Under the pieces are notes generated by a model. That model had not been told where the DNA came from. It did no database searches and saw only the letters and a list, made by a program, of their open reading frames with translations. Of a stretch of DNA of 64,000 nucleotides, positions 5,536-17,916 are shown in pieces (the stretch's first letter is position 1; each line of letters begins with the position of its first letter). This stretch comes from a virus: the IMG/VR virus record IMGVR_UViG_3300045988_179183; one strand, 5' to 3'. Made by a program: the position numbers and the translations under genes.

Positions 5536-7531
5536 TTACGTTAGTATCAACACCTCCGTGTTTTCATTCGCGTAAATAGCCATTTGTTGATTTCTCTCGT
5601 CCCAGTTTGTTCGACCGTTCATAAACAGGATCGTATCCTTACAGTTTTTCAAAATATTTTCGAACGATTCATATTCATTGGACCAGAAAACAACCGTTCG
5701 AAACTGGTAATTCTGCTCAAGCGTGATGATGGCGTAATCACCCTTTCGTCCAGTTTTTATTGCGATTTCATACACATAACCCCCAGCCGTTAAATTATAA
5801 CTTTTCGTTTCCAAGGGATCGTCCACTATTTCCGAAAAATCTTTGAAAGGATACTCCGAATCACCAACCATCTCCTTGAAATAATCCAAGTATAATTTTG
5901 AGTAATTGAAAAACGCCAAACCACACAATTTCTTCTGCCTCAAATTATGCCACCACTCTAGTTTCACCTTATCGGGATTCAACTCAAACACATCTTTTTC
6001 CTTATCGATTTTTACCTTATTAACGGTTCTGTATCGTTTTATAAGTTTTATCCTGTCTATAACGTTTGATATTGATTCTAGCTTATCGAAAGCACCACAT
6101 GAAATCAAATTTTCTATAACACTTTTATTAACGGCACTTCCTTTCTGTGAATGACGGTCTAAAAATTCATCAAAACCAAAGTAGGGGCCGTTCTCGGATC
6201 TTTCCTTCATGATCTCCGCTTGTGCCTTCTCGCCGACCTGTTTCACTGATGAGATTGACCACACCAAACTTTTATCAGTGAAATCTGTCTTGATCTTATC
6301 CGTCGATTCATTAATATCAGGGGGGGTCACCTTGATATTTCCTATTTCATTTATCTCGTGTAGATAAACGGGGAAATCATCATCATCAGCGTAGGAGAAC
6401 GCAACGGACCAGAAAGCTAACGGATAATTTACTTTTAACCACTGACACGCGTATCCTGTGTTTGCATACGCGACCGCGTGGGATTTATTGAACTGATAAT
6501 CAGCCATATTCTCAATTTCCTTCCATGTCTCTTCCGCGTATTTTTGATCAACACCGAAATTCTCGATATAATTTTTCAAAAATCTTTCCCTGAAGGGTTG
6601 AAGTTTCTCCACGTTCTTCTTACCAATCGCACGGCGTGCGCCATCCGCGTCAACAAGATTAAACCCTCCTAACACTTGGAACATTTTCATTGTCTGCTCC
6701 TGCCATATCATGATATACCGGCTACTTTGAAGTATTTCTCCCGCCCCTTTTCTAAATGATACTTCCCTCTCACCCTTTTTACGAAGGATATACTCGTTAT
6801 GGAAATTTCCCTCCATAACCCCCGGTCGATATAACCCAATACAGTTTACAAGCTCTGTTATGTTATCGGGCTTTAACATCTTACAATATCCGGTTAACCC
6901 TTTCGCGCCAAAATGAAATACATCACCATTCCACCCCCTTTGAAAATACGAGTAAACTTTCGGATCATCAAGAGGTAATTCATAGAGGTTGATTTCTTCA
7001 CCAGTATCATCTTTGATTAATTTCAATATATCACCGAACTTACTTAACTGCAAGATTCCCAGAATATCCTCTTTCAAAAAACCCGCGGTGTCAAGTTCAC
7101 CACCCTCCCACTCACTGATCAACATATCACCCTGCCGGCGAATCGGATTCCAATGATACATATCCTTTTCATCCGGGTAAATCATCATGGCACATGCGTG
7201 AATCGATTTCGCCTTAGGTTGACCCTGTATCAAGCCGACCATCTCGATGATCTCCGGGTTTCTGTTAATGAAATTCGCGACATCTTTTTTCTGACAGGCG
7301 ATTCTGAATAAATCATCAAAATCCTTCACACCATCTATTTTAGAAGTAAATGAGTTTACCTCTGCGACGGGGACACCTTTCAACCTACATAGATCCTTGA
7401 CGGCGGCCTTGACTTGAAGAGTCGTGTAGGTTCCCACGGAGCAAACTTGATCGGCACCGTAACGCTCCTCCATGTATCTTTTAACTTCCGGTCTTCTCGC
7501 CATCTCGAAATCAGTATCGATGTCCCTTAGT
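5536..7531 (-). CDS. dnaE: DNA polymerase III alpha (DnaE-type) replicase, 3' exon; the 5' limit is approximate
   Basis: In frame, upstream of the first ATG (7503) and with no start codon, the sequence reads ..RLRDIDTDFE-MARRPEVKRYMEERYGADQVCSVGTYTTLQVKAAVKDLCRLKG. This aligns with E. coli DnaE [51 protein letters not shown]. Downstream is the finger/beta-binding region (FNKSHAVAYA). Confidence 0.85.
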
Positions 7532-8520
7532 CTGGCAGCGAACCGTGCTTGATTCGCTGCCGCTTTTCTAATTTAATTGATTTAACTATATATTCCATTT
7601 CAAATTTTGTTTTATCTGTTTTACAAATCTAGATTTTTCAATAAAAGACATCACCTTTCTCCTTATATCTGTTTCTCTTAAATACACCTCCGTATATAAA
7701 GGAACCCATTTCCTTTCGAATAGCTTGCCTTTCTGAAGAAAAGTAAGTAATGTATCATGATTACCACTCGGTGATAATGTTTTTTGTGCGTCATAAGCAG
7801 ATAGAAATTTATGTACCTCTAAAGTATAAATATTTATCATCACAATCGGTTTCGCATTCGGATTAAGACTCCCTTTCGCAACACCCCGGTCTTTTCGGAT
7901 TACTGAGATATGATCCTTCATTTCCTGGGACCATTTATTCCCATAATTACCATTTTTCCCACCCACTCGTCTCGGCGGCTTAATACCGCCAATTTTTAAA
8001 TTTAGTGTTCGTCGATCTCTCACCCACTGATGATCAACTACACGTTTTTCCTGAATCAATGCATCATCTACGGTATTAAAATACAACAAATTCACTCTCT
8101 TAAACGCACCAACCCCGTACAATCTCACGCAATTACCTAATGGCATTGGTAAAGGGTCCTTGTAATCTTTTAAACCGGTGGAGTAATCCGTCTTGATTCC
8201 GCCACCAATATAAGAATCTTCCACTGTTTTTGATGAATGAACCCCAACATATACTTTTCCGTTTACCATACAGGTTGTTTTATACAAAATATTATAAAGG
8301 TTATTGTCACCCTTAAACGGATTCTTTTGTCCGTTCGAGCATTTTGCTAATATCTCCTGATCCGACACTAACGATTCTATCTCCATCTTTTAAATCTTGA
8401 GCTTTTACATCTAATTTTTCTCCCGATCTAAAAATACACACTTTATCATCAAAATCCAACTCTATATCTAAATTATTATCGAATGTGATTTTTACAACGT
8501 CCACTTCAACTTGTTGACCG
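7532..8520 (-). mobile_element. Probable group I intron carrying a GIY-YIG homing-endonuclease ORF, interrupting dnaE; boundaries are tentative
   Basis: The DnaE reading frame breaks after FERFLNKGR (R codon at 8523..8525). It resumes at RDIDTDFE (7504..7527), which has no start codon of its own. A perfect 9-bp stem (7534..7542 pairing with 7553..7561) lies just before the resumption point. An HEG ORF lies inside. One frame-preserving junction is ..CGT AT | A CTA AGG.., with U before the 5' splice site and G at the intron end. Confidence 0.55.
7586..8386 (-). CDS. GIY-YIG homing endonuclease (I-TevI/Seg-like)
   Basis: The GIY-YIG module reads NILYKTTCMVNGKVYVGVHS...YIGGG. NUMOD3-like linkers are GKNGNYGNKWSQEMKDHIS and GSLNPNAKPIVM. 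There is a C-terminal DNA-binding-like tail. The ORF lies between the two dnaE halves. Confidence 0.8.
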   Translation of the reverse strand: MEIESLVSDQEILAKCSNGQKNPFKGDNNLYNILYKTTCMVNGKVYVGVHSSKTVEDSYIGGGIKTDYSTGLKDYKDPLPMPLGNCVRLYGVGAFKRVNLLYFNTVDDALIQEKRVVDHQWVRDRRTLNLKIGGIKPPRRVGGKNGNYGNKWSQEMKDHISVIRKDRGVAKGSLNPNAKPIVMINIYTLEVHKFLSAYDAQKTLSPSGNHDTLLTFLQKGKLFERKWVPLYTEVYLRETDIRRKVMSFIEKSRFVKQIKQNLKWNI

Positions 8521-9935
8521 ATACGACCTTTATTCAGAAAACGTTCGAATAGCAAATCGTAATCAAACGGGTTAATGTGCGTCAGACCCAATAAATAGGC
8601 GACGAGGGAGCCACAAGCTGATCCACGGCCGAACCCTACGAGTATACCTTGACGTTTACACCATTGGGTGATATCCCAAAGTATCAAGAAATAATCAACA
8701 ACATCTCCGTATTTAATTACATCTATCTCAGTTTCAAGTCTATCAAGATACTTCTCTTGTTCATCAACATCACTTATCCCCATGCTATTAAACCCATCCG
8801 CGACCAAGGATATAAGCATATCAACTTTTGATCCATCATATTTCTTGAACTCCTCCTCGGTCATTTTATATTTAGGAAGATGACGTTGTGATAGATCGAC
8901 CTTGAAATTACTACACCTTTCAGCGATATCATTTGTGTTCTCGATCGCGAATCCGATGATATCAAGCATAATATCTTGGTCATTATCAGAGAATAACTCC
9001 CTAATCTCCATCAAATATTCTTCGTTACATTTGAAGTATTGATTTTTTGAAAAATCGTTACTTATACCCGCGGATGAATTCAACGCTTTTTTCAGATAGA
9101 AATATTCTTGGTCCAAATAATACGCATCACAGATATTTGTGGGCAACATGGAACTTGAGAAATATTCCTGAAGATTCAAAAGATATACCCTATCTCTTTC
9201 ATTTGAATCAAACTTAACTGAATCAAGTTGATAGTATGTGTTCATCAATTCTTTCGGCACATCTTTAAATTGCAGGCTCTTCGGGTCAATCACGATAATT
9301 AATCCCTCTCTCAATGACAGAAACTTTCCTTCATCGATCCTCACATTATTATCAACGTTAATTTCCTTGTTGATAGAAAGAAGGTTCATCCACCCTGTTT
9401 CATCCACGACGTAAACCTTCACATCGTACAGAAGATCTTTCTTTTGATTGAACACGGTAACGGTTTCACCGATCACCGGTTTCAAACCGTGTTTCTGGCA
9501 TTCCAACTGAAATTTAAGCACACCCGCAAGTGTGTTTTTCTCACAGATACCCAAAATACTCACACCGAAAAAATTCGCTTTTCGACACCAATCTCCATAA
9601 TCTCCGGTTCCGTTCAATAATTCAAACGGACCTCTCACTCCCAGAAATGATTCGGTCGGTAAATCACTATCAACCTTACCGATATATTTCAAGAGTTTCA
9701 ACTTCACTTTCGATTCATTACCCTTTCTCAAAGTGTAATACAGACGGCCGAACTTATAGATGTAATTATTCGCAGTGATGGGTGTTCCTATGTAATTAAA
9801 CCCTCGATCAAACAGAAGTCCGTCGACATTGGGCCCTGATAATTCATATGTATCACCATCCATTGTGATAATACCCAGGTCGGAAATATCATATATAAAT
9901 CCATTGCGATCGAGATACGATAACAGTTCTTTCAT
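8521..9935 (-). CDS. dnaE: DNA polymerase III alpha (DnaE-type) replicase, 5' exon; the ORF reads through into the intron as far as 8313
   Basis: The palm region YFLILWDITQWCKRQGILVGFGRGSACGSLVAYLLGLTHINPFDYDLLFERFLNKGR matches the DnaE consensus. An N-terminal PHP-like region is present but lacks the usual His ligands (FLGVRGPFELLNG where E. coli has HLRVHSDYS). Confidence 0.85.
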
Positions 9936-10644: not shown

Positions 10645-11448
10645 TTATTTACCAACGAATCCAGCAAAAAATCGGTACTTTTCAATATTAAATTTTATGT
10701 CATTCCATTGAGATTGTTGTACATCGATACCCACCATCTTATGAAGCATCACGGGAATTTTTTCTTCAAGTCCGCTATCCGTATATCTTACACCGTGTAA
10801 ACCATGAATAACTGGATTAGATGTATCGATACTTCTGATAAAGTGATACTTATCCTCGTTATATTGGCAAACTTCTTGCGGTAATACTGTGCCCAGTAAA
10901 TGCAACGGCTTTTCACAATCCATAACACCGTGATTGATGAGCTGGTCAATGAACATTTTTCTTCCTCTACAATATGCCTTCGATGTATTCTCATCAGCCG
11001 CGAGACTTAAATAAATGGGTAAGTTGAAAGGTAGCGCAACCATATCACAGCATTCGACCATGCATTTATAGCATTCGACAAGTTCATTCCAACTTATCCC
11101 CTGAACAACACCGATTGAATAGCTGCACGATATTTTCTCCCACGTTCTCGCCATTCTCATCGTTTCTTTCGCATTTCTCAAAACATCGGGTAAAACGTAA
11201 TAAGTTGGCTTCAGTGCCTTAATCCATGAACGAAATCTATTTGCGTCAAATGCCGACCCCAATTCGAACACTGAATTGTCAAGAATTACCTCGCGTCCCT
11301 TGTTAACAAGCGCATCCATGAAAAATTCGAAATAATCGCCACCTATATCGGGATCTTCAAACAAGTGAACAAGTGCGTAATCATAATCAGTCATCGATTG
11401 AACCTTGTTCATAATCGATAACGGTGCTTCATGCGCTATCTTAATCAT
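10645..11448 (-). CDS. Divergent TGT-fold (tRNA-guanine transglycosylase/DpdA-like) TIM-barrel protein; second paralogue
   Basis: Motifs occur in the TGT order: ILDNSVFE (cf. DSGGFQ), VLPDV (cf. LDEC), GVVQG (cf. IVQG), PLHLLG (cf. YLMGVG), SIDTSNP (cf. GIDMFDCV). It is adjacent to queC. Confidence 0.45.
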   Translation of the reverse strand: MIKIAHEAPLSIMNKVQSMTDYDYALVHLFEDPDIGGDYFEFFMDALVNKGREVILDNSVFELGSAFDANRFRSWIKALKPTYYVLPDVLRNAKETMRMARTWEKISCSYSIGVVQGISWNELVECYKCMVECCDMVALPFNLPIYLSLAADENTSKAYCRGRKMFIDQLINHGVMDCEKPLHLLGTVLPQEVCQYNEDKYHFIRSIDTSNPVIHGLHGVRYTDSGLEEKIPVMLHKMVGIDVQQSQWNDIKFNIEKYRFFAGFVGK

Positions 11449-13171
11449 TGTGTTGATATTTTATGGGATCCGTCATTCCGTTTAATTCAAACGCTTCGAG
11501 CCGCTCGGTACAATTATGCACCAAATATCCCTCACAAATAAATGAACCAGCACTAGTCTTAATATCATATACATGTGCCTCCTTAACTGGTTCATCTATT
11601 TTATTTACCACCACTTGGTCTAAAAGCCTTATTGAATTATATGTGCCTAACTTTTCAAGCATCGACGCACGTTTTCCCGCACCGTACTTTAATGTAATTA
11701 TGTACGGTCTTGTTACTCTCCAAGTTTGCATAAGGGTACCGCCCTCTTTAAAACCGGGCGTAACGGATTGCGACCTGTCACACTTAATCCCCAACAATGA
11801 TAATGCTTTATCGATTTGAATACACTTTTCTTTATTCACAATCACTGCTTGGCTTATAGAAAAACCGAATGATCCATTTGATTTATTATGACAAGCACAC
11901 CCATCAGCTATCAACATTCCGTTTAAATACCCGCGCAAATACTCAGGGTGTTCATTAAATTTTGTCTTCTCAAGAAACACAGGACCATAACCGCCACCAG
12001 CACGGTGCATGTTGGTATCCTCCCTGTAAGTGATTTTTACATCACATGGCTTGATATATTTATCATAAAGAGACCAAAATTCTTCCAATACATCGAACTC
12101 CTTTTGAAATGTATGAACACCCCGTGTGTCAATGGATCCATCACCATCAGCAAATCCACGTAAATAACCCAGGGCGAATTTTTCATCATCAACCTCTTTT
12201 CTTGTATTTGATACTGGCCAAAATTTCACCATATAAGTAGCATCCTTTCTCTTCATCTCCTCGTACTTTCTATATCTTGGCCTTAACTTCATATTTGAAG
12301 CATACACATAATGATCCTTCGTTAAAAGAAGACCCGCCATATCATATACCGGTTGAATACCATTATCAAACTTATCCAATACCTTCGCCACACAAATTTT
12401 CTTCGTGTTTTCATCCACGGACCACACTTCGTCTCCAATACAAATATCCTTAATTTGCTTCCATGTATTATCACTCATCAGTACTTTCTGCGATTCTTCT
12501 ATACACGACCCACACCTTCCACACGATCTTCCTTCTGGATCGGGATTATAGCACGTGTGAGTGTTACCCAGAACCAAATTAATTTCATAATCATTGAACC
12601 CGAGGATCGTCATCGCACGTAACCCTTCGGCAAGTACACCGCCCTTATCCATGTGATTGAACGGAGCTTCGTATCCCACTCTTTCACTACCCCAATTCGA
12701 TACTTTAAACGCGTGCTCACAAGCGATTCGAGATTCCTCGGATGTATCAGGATAACAGCAATGATCGCCGCTATGTAGGCCTAAAAACACATCAACATTA
12801 CTCTCCGTTTTATTCGCCCATGAAAGTGCCTTCCCATAAATGATAGCGGAAAAGATCACGTTTCTATTTTCAATAACCGTTGATTTCATATTTTCGGACG
12901 CGTAATGACCTTCCGGTATAGGTTCACCACCTACATGAAGGGACGAATTACTGTCACTGAAACAATCCCTCAGATCGATAATCTGGTGTGATAACTTAAA
13001 CCTCTTACCTTGCAAGAACTCAATATTTCTTTTCACCTTCTCCAATTCAACCTGATGCTTCTGACCGTATTGAAAAGAATAAGCCTTAACTTCGTAATCA
13101 TGAGCAAGTAAATACATGAGCAAGCACGTACTATCCAATCCGCCCGATAAACTTAAAATCGCCTTTTTCAT
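11441..13171 (-). CDS. queC: 7-cyano-7-deazaguanine (preQ0) synthase QueC interrupted by an intein (576-aa precursor, 245-aa mature)
   Basis: PP-loop MKKAILSLSGGLDSTC. The C-terminal Cys cluster SCGRCGS-[intein]-CTERLEAF rebuilds the QueC CxxCxxC..R motif. I prefer the start at 13171 (2 nt after the upstream stop) over the longer ORF start at 13228. Confidence 0.85.
   Translation of the reverse strand: MKKAILSLSGGLDSTCLLMYLLAHDYEVKAYSFQYGQKHQVELEKVKRNIEFLQGKRFKLSHQIIDLRDCFSDSNSSLHVGGEPIPEGHYASENMKSTVIENRNVIFSAIIYGKALSWANKTESNVDVFLGLHSGDHCCYPDTSEESRIACEHAFKVSNWGSERVGYEAPFNHMDKGGVLAEGLRAMTILGFNDYEINLVLGNTHTCYNPDPEGRSCGRCGSCIEESQKVLMSDNTWKQIKDICIGDEVWSVDENTKKICVAKVLDKFDNGIQPVYDMAGLLLTKDHYVYASNMKLRPRYRKYEEMKRKDATYMVKFWPVSNTRKEVDDEKFALGYLRGFADGDGSIDTRGVHTFQKEFDVLEEFWSLYDKYIKPCDVKITYREDTNMHRAGGGYGPVFLEKTKFNEHPEYLRGYLNGMLIADGCACHNKSNGSFGFSISQAVIVNKEKCIQIDKALSLLGIKCDRSQSVTPGFKEGGTLMQTWRVTRPYIITLKYGAGKRASMLEKLGTYNSIRLLDQVVVNKIDEPVKEAHVYDIKTSAGSFICEGYLVHNCTERLEAFELNGMTDPIKYQHND
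11513..12505 (-). mobile_element. Intein in QueC (331 aa), class-1-like, with a LAGLIDADG endonuclease
   Basis: Codon-checked boundaries: GS|CIEESQKVLM at the start and EGYLVHN|CTER at the end. Block B is LLLTKDHYVYA. LAGLIDADG motifs are LGYLRGFADGDGSI and LRGYLNGMLIADGCA. Block F is HVYDIKTSAGSFI. Confidence 0.85.
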
Positions 13172-13172
13172 T

Positions 13173-13757
13173 TTATAATCTGTAATTAAATTCCATAATA
13201 TCCAATACCTGGGAAACTCTTTCGTCAATACTTCCGCTCACATAGTGTATCCCTCGTGGTGCGAAGTCTTGTAACATACGCGCGTTTTTCTCAAATAAAC
13301 GATCGATTTCCTTTTGAAATACTTCATCAGTTGACCGAACTCCGTCGTCCACGATTTTAAACTCCGGCCTCAGTACAATGTGATGGCTGTAAAGGGGCTC
13401 TATATGAAATAGAAGTTGGGTGACCGTGTCAACCATTTCATCCCAGAGAGGCCTATCCTCGCTCGATGACCTGTCCCGGTTATACTCCGTGTAGCATAGA
13501 ACATCTAATAAACATCTATCGGAAATAATATGATCATGCGCTGACATCGCTGACTCGATAATTTCTTTCACATACGAAGTTGCGATCCAAAGTTGATCAT
13601 AAATACCCGCTTCCTTATTAATCTTTATGCCGCGATCATTACCTTTCCTTGAAGGAGATCCCATAAAGAGAGATCCCTTCAAACACTCCTCCTTTTTCAA
13701 CGCCTCAATTAACGTTGTCTTACCTGTGCATTGAGCACCTGAAATTGATATAATCAT
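13173..13757 (-). CDS. P-loop NTPase, NadR/AAA_28-like putative nucleoside or nucleotide kinase
   Basis: Walker A ISGAQCTGKTTL. Kinase-like segments SDRCLLDVLCY and VDDGVRSTDEVFQ resemble the NadR ribosylnicotinamide-kinase domain. Confidence 0.45.
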   Translation of the reverse strand: MIISISGAQCTGKTTLIEALKKEECLKGSLFMGSPSRKGNDRGIKINKEAGIYDQLWIATSYVKEIIESAMSAHDHIISDRCLLDVLCYTEYNRDRSSSEDRPLWDEMVDTVTQLLFHIEPLYSHHIVLRPEFKIVDDGVRSTDEVFQKEIDRLFEKNARMLQDFAPRGIHYVSGSIDERVSQVLDIMEFNYRL

Positions 13758-13814: not shown

Positions 13815-13845
13815 TCAACAAAAACAGAGATTATTTTCTCTGTTT
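13815..13845 (-). terminator. Hairpin plus U-run, putative intrinsic terminator after the dCTP-deaminase-fold gene
   Basis: The minus strand reads AAACAGAG-aaaataat-CTCTGTTT followed by TTGTTG. The stem overlaps the stop codon at 13831. Confidence 0.4.
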
Positions 13846-14331
13846 GTCGTTTTGATATTGGCCGTTATATAAATCTTCCTCGTTTACATCCGTGCAATCA
13901 TAACAGTAGAACTGGGCCACGCGGGCGTTCTTCTCGATCGTGATTGTGTGAAACACTTCCATGAACGTACCCATCGAATCAGTGTGAAAACCCGCGTCGA
14001 AAATCGATGAATAAATCCAAGCACCGCACCGGGCAACTGAACTTCGCTGTACTATCCGACCCATTTTGTTTTTGGGTATGTTACAACCTTCAATGAAATC
14101 AACCATGTAATACCCCGGAGGTAGATGCCAAACTTCGTTTCCATTTATATCAGGAAAACATCGAACTTCTTCGTATGAGGGTAACATTGTTTTGCCCTCG
14201 CGGGGTATGAATCCATGACCTTTCACAACACTTACCTTTCTCAACCGAATATCACATCCGTGCTGGGTTAGATTCTCTTCTAAATGATTAACGATAACAC
14301 CTTCTCCGTGTAATTCCTTTCCGTTTAACAT
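13831..14331 (-). CDS. dCTP deaminase/dUTPase-fold protein
   Basis: GRIVQRSSVARCGAWI...FDAGFHTDSMGTFMEV...ARVAQF matches the dCTP-deaminase family pattern (grSS.aR.G, dPGf.G..tlEl, aQl). Confidence 0.6.
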   Translation of the reverse strand: MLNGKELHGEGVIVNHLEENLTQHGCDIRLRKVSVVKGHGFIPREGKTMLPSYEEVRCFPDINGNEVWHLPPGYYMVDFIEGCNIPKNKMGRIVQRSSVARCGAWIYSSIFDAGFHTDSMGTFMEVFHTITIEKNARVAQFYCYDCTDVNEEDLYNGQYQNDKQRK

Positions 14332-14355
14332 AATCTCTAATTTATTAAAATTTAA

Positions 14356-15252
14356 CTATTCAATTATTTCATCATTCTGTTTTTCATACAAGAACTCTCT
14401 CGCTCTCGCGTCAGCGAACGCGTACAAAACTATATCTCGACTCAGATAATGATACGGTATCCTGCCAGATAGATCGGGGCCGGCACTCCCATACGCATCT
14501 TGCCCCGGTACGAGGGTTCCCTCTGCCACTTTCTTCAAAAAATTATTACGTGCCTTCTCAATATTGATGGCGTACCTGAAAATAGAGAAATCGACCGAAT
14601 CCGGCATGACAAACCGGGTTGTTTCAACGTTTGAACATCCCAGGAGATGAACGTATTTCCCTTTATCGCGAGCGTACTTCATCATCTTTCCCAGTTCATC
14701 CCTGTACACATGCCATTCCCTACCCTGAGCCAGACCTCCTATCGAAAGGATGGGGTAGAGGGGCGAGTCACAGAGATCCTTCCAGTATTGAAAACCCTGA
14801 TGCATTTTAAATACCGGTGCGGGATAGTACCCTGTTATTTCCTTGATCTCGTCTCTCAGATAATTTTTAGGTGATAACAGGTTATCATCTTTTCTAAAAT
14901 ACTCGTTATCAAGTTCAAAACACATTTTAAACGGATACATTTTAAGAAACCGAAGAAACTTTTTCTTCATTTTCTCGCATTCATTCCAAAAATCAGGGTT
15001 GTTTTCACCCAGTTTCTTCTGTTTTTTGAATAATGTGAAACCACCGGAATCCAACCATATTCGATCGCCTCCAACAACGGTTTGAATAAATTTAATATAC
15101 CCGGCGGTCATATCAACGGTTGAAATTAGATAGTCGTTATCATGTGCAAGCAAAAGTTTTTCCAAGACCTTATCGGACCTACAACTACACACCAGACCAC
15201 CACCCAATCCCATCACAAGCCTTTTTTTAGGTTTTTCAAACATATCAATCAA
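14356..15252 (-). CDS. dpdA: DpdA-like DNA (7-deazaguanine) transglycosylase, TGT family
   Basis: TGT motifs: WLDSGGFTLF, FELDNEY, LSIGGLAQG, YVHLLGCS, PDSVDFSIF. It is embedded among the preQ0 synthesis genes. An alternative start lies at 15243. Confidence 0.7.
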   Translation of the reverse strand: MIDMFEKPKKRLVMGLGGGLVCSCRSDKVLEKLLLAHDNDYLISTVDMTAGYIKFIQTVVGGDRIWLDSGGFTLFKKQKKLGENNPDFWNECEKMKKKFLRFLKMYPFKMCFELDNEYFRKDDNLLSPKNYLRDEIKEITGYYPAPVFKMHQGFQYWKDLCDSPLYPILSIGGLAQGREWHVYRDELGKMMKYARDKGKYVHLLGCSNVETTRFVMPDSVDFSIFRYAINIEKARNNFLKKVAEGTLVPGQDAYGSAGPDLSGRIPYHYLSRDIVLYAFADARAREFLYEKQNDEIIE

Positions 15253-15685: not shown

Positions 15686-16327
15686 TTATTTTCTCCCGAG
15701 TTTATAAATCTGTATCGCTCTTAAAAACTCATCTCGGCTATTCATCTCATTTGTTAAAAACGCCCCCGAACAATAGTGGGTTGTCATCGTACTATTATCT
15801 TCCGCGCCCCGCATACTCACGCACATATGTTCCGCCTCAATATAAACTGCGATACCCAGCACTGTGTCGCCGAATATGTTAACCAAATAATCATGAATCT
15901 GACGAGTTAATTGTTCTTGTAATTGAGGCCGTTTGGCGAACCAGTGAACTATTCTGTTTAGTTTCGAAAGACCAATAACTTGGCCACTTTCCTTGCTGAT
16001 ATACGCCAAACTACAGAATCCTGTGAACGGAAGTAAATGGTGTGAACACAATGAATTCACCTCGATCCCATGTTCAATTACCATACCTGAGTATCCTGAA
16101 CTTGGGAATACCGCCAATTTCGGAGGTGCAGAATACGCACCTGACGTGATTTCATTGACAAACATTTTCGCAACCCTGTACGGTGTTTTTATCATGTTAG
16201 GGTCATTCTTCCAATCATACCCCAGGGCCTCCAAGAACTTACCGTACGCCTCGGTGGCCCTTGCCAACATCTCGTTTCTATCATCATCGGAAAGAACGAC
16301 GTTCCCTCCTGCCATTATTTTTTTCAT
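15686..16327 (-). CDS. folE: GTP cyclohydrolase I (FolE)
   Basis: Active-site motifs SLCSHHLLPF and EAEHMCVSMRG, plus QERLT-like QEQLTRQI. Confidence 0.9.
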   Translation of the reverse strand: MKKIMAGGNVVLSDDDRNEMLARATEAYGKFLEALGYDWKNDPNMIKTPYRVAKMFVNEITSGAYSAPPKLAVFPSSGYSGMVIEHGIEVNSLCSHHLLPFTGFCSLAYISKESGQVIGLSKLNRIVHWFAKRPQLQEQLTRQIHDYLVNIFGDTVLGIAVYIEAEHMCVSMRGAEDNSTMTTHYCSGAFLTNEMNSRDEFLRAIQIYKLGRK

Positions 16328-16352: not shown

Positions 16353-17117
16353 CTAAGCATCTCTCTTATCTCCGAAGATTATTATATGTAAGCGGTCAGA
16401 GTAGAAGTAGCCCAAATCTATACATCTCTGTGCCAACCATTTTCTTTTCTCTGCCAGTTTCTCCTCGGTATCCCCCTCCGGCATCAGATAGACTATTACA
16501 GGCCAGAAGGGGTCCAGTTTAGATACCTCCTTCTTAATTTTCCGAACTTGTCTCTCGACTTCCTTTATATCATCCTCCGAGGACACCACATATTTCAACT
16601 GCGAGAATTTCGATTCCATGATCCATGACACTATAGCGGGGATATTCTCCCTCGTTTTCGCGTGTTTCTCCGCGAATTCGCCCGAACTCGGAATTGAACT
16701 CTTCAATTTAGGTGAGATTGATACGACGTCTACGTACGTATCCTCATCCAGTACATCACCTCTCGCGATGGTTCCGTTCGTTTCCATGCTCACACTCAAC
16801 TTATGTCTCCGACCTATCTCGATCAACGATCTCAACAATTCGGGATGAAGGGTCGGTTCTCCCCCGGTAATAAGCATGCATTTTATCTGAGGGTTCATGA
16901 TTATGATATCGACGACATCGTTCAATGAATATTTACCCTTTTCCGGGTTCCACGAGCTGTAGGCCGTGTCACATATACTCCCTTTAAAAGTACATCTCAG
17001 GTTACACCCAGATGTTCTTATAAGAATATGGGGGACCCCCACCTTCATACCCTCTCCCTGTATACAGGTGTGCAAATCAATAATCGGTTGAATTTCTGAA
17101 TAATCCATTTTTAACAT
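16353..17117 (-). CDS. queE: 7-carboxy-7-deazaguanine synthase QueE (radical SAM)
   Basis: IQGEGMKVGVPHILIRTSGCNLRCTFKGSICDTAYS, followed by GGEPTLH. The Cys spacing is Cx3Cx6C rather than Cx3Cx2C. Confidence 0.8.
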   Translation of the reverse strand: MLKMDYSEIQPIIDLHTCIQGEGMKVGVPHILIRTSGCNLRCTFKGSICDTAYSSWNPEKGKYSLNDVVDIIIMNPQIKCMLITGGEPTLHPELLRSLIEIGRRHKLSVSMETNGTIARGDVLDEDTYVDVVSISPKLKSSIPSSGEFAEKHAKTRENIPAIVSWIMESKFSQLKYVVSSEDDIKEVERQVRKIKKEVSKLDPFWPVIVYLMPEGDTEEKLAEKRKWLAQRCIDLGYFYSDRLHIIIFGDKRDA

Positions 17118-17344
17118 AAATAAGCGTTATACAATTCTATAAACTCGGCGAGATCCAGTTCTGAGAATCTCCGTTCTTTCGCAATCTCTTTAATAAGATC
17201 AAGTTGATTTTCATAAAGCTCGTCCGCCATCTCACCATACCCGCTCACCCTTAAATCAATCACAGGCAATGAAAGTTCAAATGCCAGACTTTCATCAAAC
17301 CCATAGCGATCAACAAGATCATTTAGTTCCTTTTTCGTTATCAT
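17111..17344 (-). CDS. Hypothetical small acidic protein (77 aa)
   Basis: ORF overlapping both neighbours by a few nt, suggesting translational coupling between queD and queE. Confidence 0.5.
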   Translation of the reverse strand: MITKKELNDLVDRYGFDESLAFELSLPVIDLRVSGYGEMADELYENQLDLIKEIAKERRFSELDLAEFIELYNAYLC

Positions 17345-17916
17345 AACTTCACTTGTAGTTCAACCTTTGGGTTCACGAATTTAATCCCTCGAAAAAGTTT
17401 ATGATAAATCTCAGTTTTTGCCAGTGAAGGGCTAACTTCTATTTCTTCGGGATACATTTCCAAGTATCTATCATAATCATTTCGATCCGATTCGGCATAA
17501 CCAGTATCTGTTTCATGAACTCGCACTGATTGCACAACCACGTTACCCTCACCATTGTTAAATTCTGTTTTTTCCAATATCGATTCAAAACAAGCGAAAA
17601 ACATGGATGAGAGTAATTCAGCGGAGGGATTGCAAGGTAAAATTATCCACCTATCATTCATCGCCTGTATAAAATTTTTGTAAACCTCGTTATCCTTCGC
17701 CCACAATAAATGAGTATGATCGAATAAATCAACGACTTCTTTAAAATTACCAAGAAGACCGAAATCGACGACCATCCCTGCGTTATCCAAACGATCCGAG
17801 GTCAAAAATAACTCAACTTTATAGCTGTGTCCGTGAATTGAATGTGAACATCTGTCCGATGTACAATTTCTCACAATATGGCTTCCCTCAAACTTAAACA
17901 ATTTTCTAATTATCAT
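17341..17916 (-). CDS. queD: 6-carboxy-5,6,7,8-tetrahydropterin synthase QueD (PTPS family), long form
   Basis: FKFEGSHIV..CSHSIHGHSYKVELFL and VRVHETDTGYAE match PTPS/QueD signatures. Confidence 0.8.
   Translation of the reverse strand: MIIRKLFKFEGSHIVRNCTSDRCSHSIHGHSYKVELFLTSDRLDNAGMVVDFGLLGNFKEVVDLFDHTHLLWAKDNEVYKNFIQAMNDRWIILPCNPSAELLSSMFFACFESILEKTEFNNGEGNVVVQSVRVHETDTGYAESDRNDYDRYLEMYPEEIEVSPSLAKTEIYHKLFRGIKFVNPKVELQVKL

Follow-up and report, generated by a model that had tools for sequence, protein, structure and literature searches.

The stretch of viral DNA analysed here (IMG/VR record IMGVR_UViG_3300045988_179183; 64,000 nucleotides, referred to as the window) belongs to a tailed phage of the human gut, uncultured and represented solely by metagenomic sequence, with a genome of about 100 kilobases (kb), and contains on its minus strand a gene encoding QueC, a nucleobase-modification enzyme, which is interrupted in frame by what is very probably an ordinary class 1 intein with a LAGLIDADG homing endonuclease (Table 1). 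The open reading frame (ORF) runs uninterrupted from 13228 to 11441 in the window translation; the protein probably begins at the ATG at 13171, one base past the stop of the upstream gene, which gives a precursor of 576 amino acids (aa). Pfam QueC matches precursor residues 3-225 (4.3e-36; 124.8 bits against a cut-off of 22), and the precursor junctions read ...NTHTCYNPDPEGRSCGRCGS / CIEESQKVLMSDNTW...SFICEGYLVHN / CTERLEAFELNGMTDPIKYQHND. The intein occupies precursor residues 223-553 (331 aa, window 12505 down to 11513), and the N-extein of 222 aa and the C-extein of 23 aa make up a predicted spliced product of 245 aa. An initial annotation of the window had placed the junctions at SCGRCGS/CIEESQ...YLVHN/CTERLEAF and the insert at 11513-12505, and had predicted a 245-aa spliced QueC; retranslation returns the same junctions and coordinates exactly, and the extein lengths give the same product. 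Indexes of public assemblies list the identical 576-aa protein in 58 blocks, and the 21 contigs with this precursor that were examined include contigs of about 100 kb from independent human-gut samples. The observation of the intein is far beyond chance.

Anatomy of the intein and its place in QueC

The concatenated exteins align without gaps through the junction to the solved, intein-free QueC structures 3BL5 and 2PG3, with the junction region TCYNPDPEGRSCGRCGSCTERL aligned to a segment of 3BL5 (Bacillus subtilis QueC), and this alignment confirms the insertion within the CxxCxxC motif that the initial annotation had proposed. Residues C207, C217, C220 and the first residue of the C-extein (+1 Cys) correspond to Cys186, 195, 198 and 201 of 3BL5. 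Canonical QueC has as its hallmark a C(x)8CxxCxxC zinc motif (PMC13082051); the window QueC shows C207(x)9C217xxC220xxC223 (spliced numbering), with one residue more in the first spacer, and retains the SGGLDS PP-loop. The intein lies between Ser222 and Cys223 of spliced QueC, directly ahead of the fourth zinc-ligand Cys. Since the +1 Cys is this fourth ligand, equivalent to Cys201, the same Cys would serve as splicing nucleophile, and the proposal that splicing is needed to assemble the metal site appears sound for the same reason. The motif with its proper fourth ligand is complete only once the protein is spliced. The unspliced precursor still reads CxxCxxC, with Cys1 of the intein standing in for the fourth cysteine, a residual pattern that the initial annotation overlooked.

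An alignment was made of eighteen full precursors that share the insertion point; the identity of their exteins to those of the window falls as low as about 27%. C223 (Cys1), T284, H287, D536, H552, N553 and C554 (+1 Cys; precursor numbering) are invariant in all 18, as are V534 and the glycines of both LAGLIDADG motifs; of the acidic residues, D344 in motif 1 is nearly invariant, and motif 2 has either D or E at position 423 in every precursor. In an alignment of the inteins alone Cys1 is only nearly invariant, solely because one intein at a different QueC site (P0052, site c, described below) begins with Ala. Conservation of blocks A, B, F and G, on which the initial annotation had made the identification of an intein depend, thus extends across the 18 precursors. 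Pfam LAGLIDADG_3 scores 30.1, above its cut-off of 22.5, and a profile of the intein family matches both ends of solved inteins (Spl DnaX, DnaB, PI-MtuI and PI-SceI); the matches to mini-inteins span positions 5-90 and 300-332, and the middle of the profile matches a LAGLIDADG enzyme. The AlphaFold2 model of the precursor has a mean predicted local distance difference test score of 84 and shows residues 329-511 as a helical alpha/beta region. Its best Foldseek matches in the PDB are the TliVMA intein (7qsu, 2.7e-14) and PI-SceI (1ef0, 1e-12), followed at lower rank by B. subtilis QueC (3bl5, template modelling (TM) score of 0.73 on the target) and then by I-DmoI and I-Tsp061I (TM about 0.6), so that the predicted fold would contain the three parts expected of the precursor: intein, QueC and LAGLIDADG endonuclease. 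The 331-aa LAGLIDADG intein of the initial annotation is therefore backed by Pfam, by the family profile and by the fold matches of the model.

The inteins of yeast VMA1 (PI-SceI) and Thermococcus litoralis VMA likewise show a Hint domain split by a LAGLIDADG endonuclease and share with the QueC intein Cys1, the TxxH motif, the terminal His-Asn and the +1 Cys. However, the QueC intein is only 11-14% identical to them and has 331 aa against 366-454 aa; their host is a V-type ATPase instead of QueC, and the relatives of the QueC intein are essentially confined to QueC. There is no new mechanism here: the novelty lies in QueC as host protein and in two nucleophiles that both fall within its zinc site.

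Table 1. Position of the QueC precursor, its parts and the surrounding genes in the window
Feature	Position	Strand	Evidence or remarks
RecA/UvsX-like ORF, 666 aa	235-2235	-	
DnaE C fragment	5536-7503	-	model positions 111-260, finger, HHH
Homing-endonuclease-like ORF between DnaE fragments	7586-8386		phrog_314
DnaE N fragment	8313-9935	-	PHP; NTPase-domain model positions 6-99
DpdA3-like DNA guanine transglycosylase, 267 aa	10645-11448	-	overlaps QueC stop by 8 nucleotides
QueC precursor ORF, 576 aa and stop	11441-13171	-	translation; Pfam QueC
C-extein CTERLEAFELNGMTDPIKYQHND and stop	11441-11512	-	first codon, 11510-11512, is the +1 Cys
Intein CIEESQ...YLVHN, predicted class 1 with inserted LAGLIDADG homing endonuclease	11513-12505	-	
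Blocks F-G VYDIKTSAGSFICEGYLVHN	11513-11572	-	block F Asp, penultimate His, terminal Asn
Homing-endonuclease domain, approximate limits	11627-12199	-	Pfam LAGLIDADG_3; model; Foldseek
LAGLIDADG motif 2 LRGYLNGMLIADGCA	11894-11938	-	
LAGLIDADG motif 1 LGYLRGFADGDGSI	12131-12172	-	
Block B TKDH (TxxH motif)	12311-12322	-	T284 and H287 invariant
Cys1, block A nucleophile	12503-12505	-	N-extein Cys at -3 and -6
N-extein, QueC residues 1-222	12506-13171	-	holds PP-loop and Zn ligands C207, C217, C220
Zn ligands C207, C217, C220 in N-extein	12512-12553	-	
Site-a position in QueC, reading GDHCCYPDT	12734-12781	-	
PP-loop SGGLDS in N-extein	13130-13147	-	
AAA_28/nucleotide-kinase-like gene, directly upstream of QueC	13173-13757	-	Pfam AAA_28, 4.5e-13
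Second, distant TGT-like gene	14356-15252	-	phrog_887 queuine tRNA-ribosyltransferase, 1.6e-10
FolE (GTP cyclohydrolase I)	15686-16327	-	
QueE-like radical SAM enzyme	16353-17117	-	
QueD-like 6-carboxytetrahydropterin synthase	17341-17916	-	
Large terminase (TerL) ORF, 1337 aa	20862-24875	-	

Intein-bearing and intein-free alleles and the spread of QueC inteins

Related phage contigs of about 100 kb from IMG/VR, with and without the insert, were compared. The insert is present at eight loci (L001-L003, L007, L014-L016 and L030) and absent from nine (L004-L006 and L008-L013). The intein-free alleles show a precise empty site, ...GGN NNN TGY GGN NNN / TGY..., in which host codons are neither lost nor gained, and the predicted endonuclease target is ...TGTGGAAGGTGTGGGTCG^TGTACCGAGCGGCTCGAAGCG.... 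The intein occurs in three QueC backgrounds whose N-extein DNA is 75-87% identical and whose intein DNA is 96-99.8% identical: relative to the window, L014 shows 86.9% in the N-extein and 99.6% in the intein, and L030 shows 74.9% and 96.4%, respectively. The intein-bearing L030 matches the intein-free L011 at 99-100% identity through 1.5 kb of upstream sequence, the complete N-extein and about 2 kb of downstream sequence; here the two are set apart only by the intein and about 20 converted nucleotides directly 3' of it. L015 is 100% identical to the intein-free L008 until about nucleotide 660 of QueC, and beyond this point it is at least 99% identical to the window type through the intein and the C-extein. 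In each of three QueC clades, the clusters at 90% identity hold both intein-bearing and intein-free lengths (576/245, 570/240 and 563/233 aa). These mosaics are the classic signature of endonuclease-driven homing with co-conversion, and by this comparison of alleles the element appears to be mobile now. The allele of L007, whose intein is 67.5% identical in DNA to that of the window, indicates that the association between QueC and the intein is also old.

The ratio of nonsynonymous to synonymous substitution (dN/dS) is 0.02-0.13 for the N-extein between intein-bearing lineages and 0.10 for the intein between the window and L030. For the window against L007, the proportions of nonsynonymous (pN) and synonymous (pS) differences in the intein are 0.19 and 0.84, with 0.235 and 0.80 in the endonuclease part. 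QueC and the intein are both under purifying selection and both are probably functional, which argues against a dead QueC and against a decaying endonuclease. For splicing itself, the selection acting on exteins of alleles that carry the intein is indirect support.

A search with the intein alone yielded 64 proteins, all of them QueC or short fragments, and an exhaustive search of 1.84 billion representatives yielded 13 clusters at E<=1e-30, consisting of QueC proteins, of intein-sized ORFs that stand alone, or of short fragments. Outside hosts with a QueC match, the closest relative among these representatives has an E-value of 3.5e-21 and 36% identity. The collected QueC proteins include 73 with an intein at the site of the window (site b), 59 at site a and one at site c, and further site-c proteins emerged in the search of 1.84 billion representatives (P0163 and P0165-P0168, besides P0052). 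The metagenome search suggested by the initial annotation thus shows more than 130 public, metagenomic QueC proteins with inteins, at three sites; two of them carry two inteins each, and P0046 has one at site a and one at site b. They carry no public name other than '7-cyano-7-deazaguanine synthase' or 'PP-loop superfamily ATPase', and the genomic contexts inspected are phage-like. Among the GTDB representative genomes the intein profile gives, among those listed, seven weak partial matches (24-34% identity), none of them adjoining a QueC extein.

The initial annotation had also proposed QueC as an undescribed intein host. This holds for the literature, where a search yielded no description of a QueC intein, yet such inteins are common in public sequence data. 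They are mentioned neither in the 2026 survey of the QueC family (PMC13082051), nor in a paper on inteins of crAss-like phages, nor in the 2025 survey of actinophage inteins, nor in the main text of the 2015 intein census. The usual phage inteins, found in terminase, RecA/UvsX, helicase and ribonucleotide reductase, are likewise mobile and polymorphic for presence between close relatives, but their hosts are replication or packaging proteins, whereas QueC is a nucleobase-modification enzyme.

Site a is found in the same QueC clade (P0063-P0120), with junctions GDH/CFT...LISN/SIYPD. Its inteins range from mini forms of 138 aa to endonuclease-bearing forms of 395 aa, and most end in Ser-Asn without the penultimate His. 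The corresponding position of the window QueC has two cysteines ahead of Tyr and Thr for the canonical Cys of YPDC, where close relatives show GDH-x-[IV]-YPDC or GDH-x-C-YRDT; the window sequence could be a target-site variant or the scar of a lost site-a intein. Site c shows YPD/A...VHN/C in P0052, P0163 and P0165-P0168. Every one of its inteins starts with Ala and carries a block F Cys (xCYDLTT), features that recall class 3 inteins. Over their full length they are 31-37% identical to the site-b family, a likeness that points to a jump from one site to another within the same protein. Three stand-alone proteins of 326-338 aa (P0160, P0161 and P0162) are 38-40% identical to the whole intein and lack Cys1, the terminal His-Asn and the +1 Cys; they could represent independent endonuclease genes that descend from this intein family, or else ORFs that were called wrongly.

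The 7-deazaguanine gene cluster and other interrupted genes

The genes encoding FolE, QueD and QueE are on the same strand as QueC, all within 5 kb, and the order on this strand is QueD, QueE, FolE, a ParB-like gene, the TGT-like gene, a dCTP-deaminase/dUTPase-like gene, AAA_28, QueC and the DpdA3-like gene. The dCTP-deaminase/dUTPase-like gene lies beside the TGT-like gene inside the cluster (13831-15252, minus strand, for both). The product of the gene that overlaps the QueC stop shows no Pfam or NCBIfam match; it shares 43% identity with the 'DNA guanine transglycosylase' of Flavobacterium phage immuto and has homologs in Campylobacter phages of the CP220 group. Cui et al. (PMC10516641) placed the transglycosylase of the CP220 group in the DpdA3 family, which is associated with complete guanine replacement, and reported the immuto genome to be completely modified by a DpdA3. 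The TGT-like product shares 47% identity with a hypothetical protein of Campylobacter phage CC_R7. The AAA_28-like gene and QueC form one fused protein in a relative of 442 aa (P0111), and this fusion hints at a functional link between the two. The gene context is consistent with 7-deazaguanine modification of DNA. The base made may be preQ0, 7-amido-7-deazaguanine (ADG) or another, since no QueF or other finishing enzyme was found among the unannotated neighbours and the spliced QueC scores under the equivalog cut-off given below.

Intein-free phage QueC clusters, such as those of Escherichia phage CAjan, vB_FspM_immuto and the CP220 group, likewise contain FolE, QueD, QueE and DpdA, and the spliced window QueC is 41% identical to that of vB_FspM_immuto. 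By contrast, when the precursor was searched against INPHARED phages with tblastn, none of the 221 records with a QueC match covered the intein part, and megablast with 11 kb of the window gave no match in the same collection. A crAss-like phage was considered as the source and rejected, as the window encodes tail sheath, baseplate and a DnaE-type polymerase. The T4-like relative L038 (GCA_964322765.1, CAYDIL010000026.1) shows two adjoining QueC paralogs, one of 245 aa and one of 570 aa with a site-b intein; the whole block occurs twice, inverted, within 13 kb, and may be an assembly artefact.

Three other genes of the window are interrupted. The TerL ORF shows two separate intein/endonuclease blocks, Hom_end_hint and Hom_end at aa 125-424 and Intein_splicing and LAGLIDADG_3 at aa 683-1054, and probably holds two inteins. 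The RecA/UvsX-like ORF has an intein in the Walker A loop, whose junctions, read by eye, are GHESSGK/ALKNGTKIF...HVITHN/TSLAIHA, and which starts with Ala, not Cys. Contigs with the identical QueC precursor contain a RecA of either 660 aa or, intein-free, 310 aa, so that this intein is also polymorphic. Kinship of the QueC intein with the RecA and TerL inteins of the window was rejected, as the only match is a marginal one of 37 residues to TerL. The gene encoding the DnaE-type polymerase III alpha subunit is split in two ORFs within 5536-9935 (minus strand), and the N fragment has a tail of about 65 aa past FERFLN. No Rfam intron match was found at this gene at gathering thresholds over the whole window, and in locus L042 the ORFs between the fragments differ. 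The split could reflect an intron, a split intein or a fractured gene.

Proposed mechanism and alternative readings

Splicing would begin with an N-S acyl shift at Cys1, aided by the block B Thr and His, followed by transesterification to the +1 Cys, cyclisation of Asn331 aided by the penultimate His, and an S-N shift, and would yield two products, a 245-aa QueC whose zinc site is intact and the 331-aa endonuclease on its own. The spliced QueC would complete the phage FolE-QueD-QueE-QueC route to preQ0 or a close 7-deazaguanine derivative, and the adjacent DpdA3-like transglycosylase would insert the resulting base into phage DNA. During co-infection the endonuclease would cleave intein-free QueC alleles at the conserved zinc-motif codons, and repair would copy the intein and a short flank into the cut allele. 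From the gene context, and because no second QueC is found in the 64-kb window, it is reasonable to infer that DNA modification, and with it genome protection, depends on splicing.

Several points weigh against this picture. Pfam Intein_splicing reaches 25.9 bits where its cut-off is 35.8, and a phmmer search of PDB sequences with the single intein gave no match at E<=1, both of which fit an intein that is divergent in sequence. Recombination unrelated to endonuclease cleavage could in principle give similar mosaics. The spliced extein scores 119.7 with the NCBIfam equivalog TIGR00364, below the cut-off of 150.3, and the window QueC, although a member of the family, could be a variant such as the ADG-forming QueC* proposed for Campylobacter phages. 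A second QueC, finally, was sought in only the 64 kb of the window, out of a genome of about 100 kb.

That the insert is no intein at all, but an assembly chimera, an in-frame intron-encoded endonuclease or a non-splicing Hint or bacterial intein-like domain, has a negligible probability: nothing favours it except the sub-threshold Intein_splicing score, and it is opposed by the presence of the same ORF in dozens of independent assemblies, by the lack of any Rfam match at gathering thresholds over the whole window, hence of support for an intron, by Hint halves that flank the endonuclease and carry the canonical splice residues, by the precision of the empty sites and by a fold that matches inteins of the PI-SceI type. 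It is only slightly more credible, and still very improbable, that the intein has lost splicing, or is limited to cleavage, so that the QueC allele is dead and the precursor base comes from the host or another gene. The weak scores with generic intein models would agree with this, another QueC could sit in the approximately 38 kb of genome beyond the window, and the relative L038 has two adjoining QueC paralogs; however, the catalytic residues are all invariant, the dN/dS values of the N-extein in intein-bearing lineages are low, the intact ORF recurs in many independent gut assemblies and the window itself has no second QueC.

Less remote than these, and still unlikely, is the view that the intein is not only a parasite but a zinc- or redox-gated switch, in which metal or redox state would time QueC activity and DNA modification. 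The precursor would be kept from splicing by Zn2+ bound at the pseudo zinc site that Cys1 completes, or by a disulfide linking Cys(-3) to Cys1. The precursor shows Cys at -6, -3, 1 and +1 (CGRCGS-C1), the site-b intein is kept in several QueC clades, the Pyrococcus abyssi MoaA intein is a precedent, in which a disulfide links Cys1 to an N-extein Cys and traps the intein, and zinc has an inhibitory effect on several inteins, that of mycobacterial DnaB in vivo among them (PMC10663303; PMC7360933). In MoaA and in the zinc-sensitive inteins (Mtu RecA, mycobacterial DnaB and Cne Prp8), Cys1 can be tied up by an extein Cys or by Zn2+, which makes splicing conditional (PMC10663303). The QueC intein, as in the MoaA case, adjoins extein cysteines of a metalloenzyme, but here these cysteines are the host enzyme's own zinc site, the +1 nucleophile is among its ligands and conditionality is hypothetical. 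Conditional splicing may be put forward as a fair hypothesis, because the Cys at -3 and -6 beside Cys1 recall the MoaA redox trap and the zinc-inhibited inteins. On the other hand, intein-free sibling alleles are frequent and the phage thrives without the intein, as fits a selfish element, and the preference of endonucleases for highly conserved codons simply explains the choice of site. The abundance of the intein-free siblings argues that the element is primarily selfish. If the intein were a switch, protein splicing would time the onset of 7-deazaguanine modification of DNA, and the near-isogenic gut phages with and without it would be a natural experiment on its benefit to the host.

With an ordinary, mobile class 1 intein in QueC as the preferred reading, a nucleobase-modification enzyme joins the list of intein hosts, and the QueC genes of uncultured phages are an intein hotspot with three insertion sites. 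Annotation pipelines and surveys of the QueC family will mis-size or mis-cluster such genes, and the expression of these phage QueC genes must allow for splicing. The near-identical genomes with mapped co-conversion tracts constitute a clean natural data set of ongoing homing, and the homologous inteins at two different sites of one protein are a resource for intein biology. The position of both nucleophiles in the zinc site of the host makes the QueC intein a convenient test case for zinc- or redox-conditional splicing.

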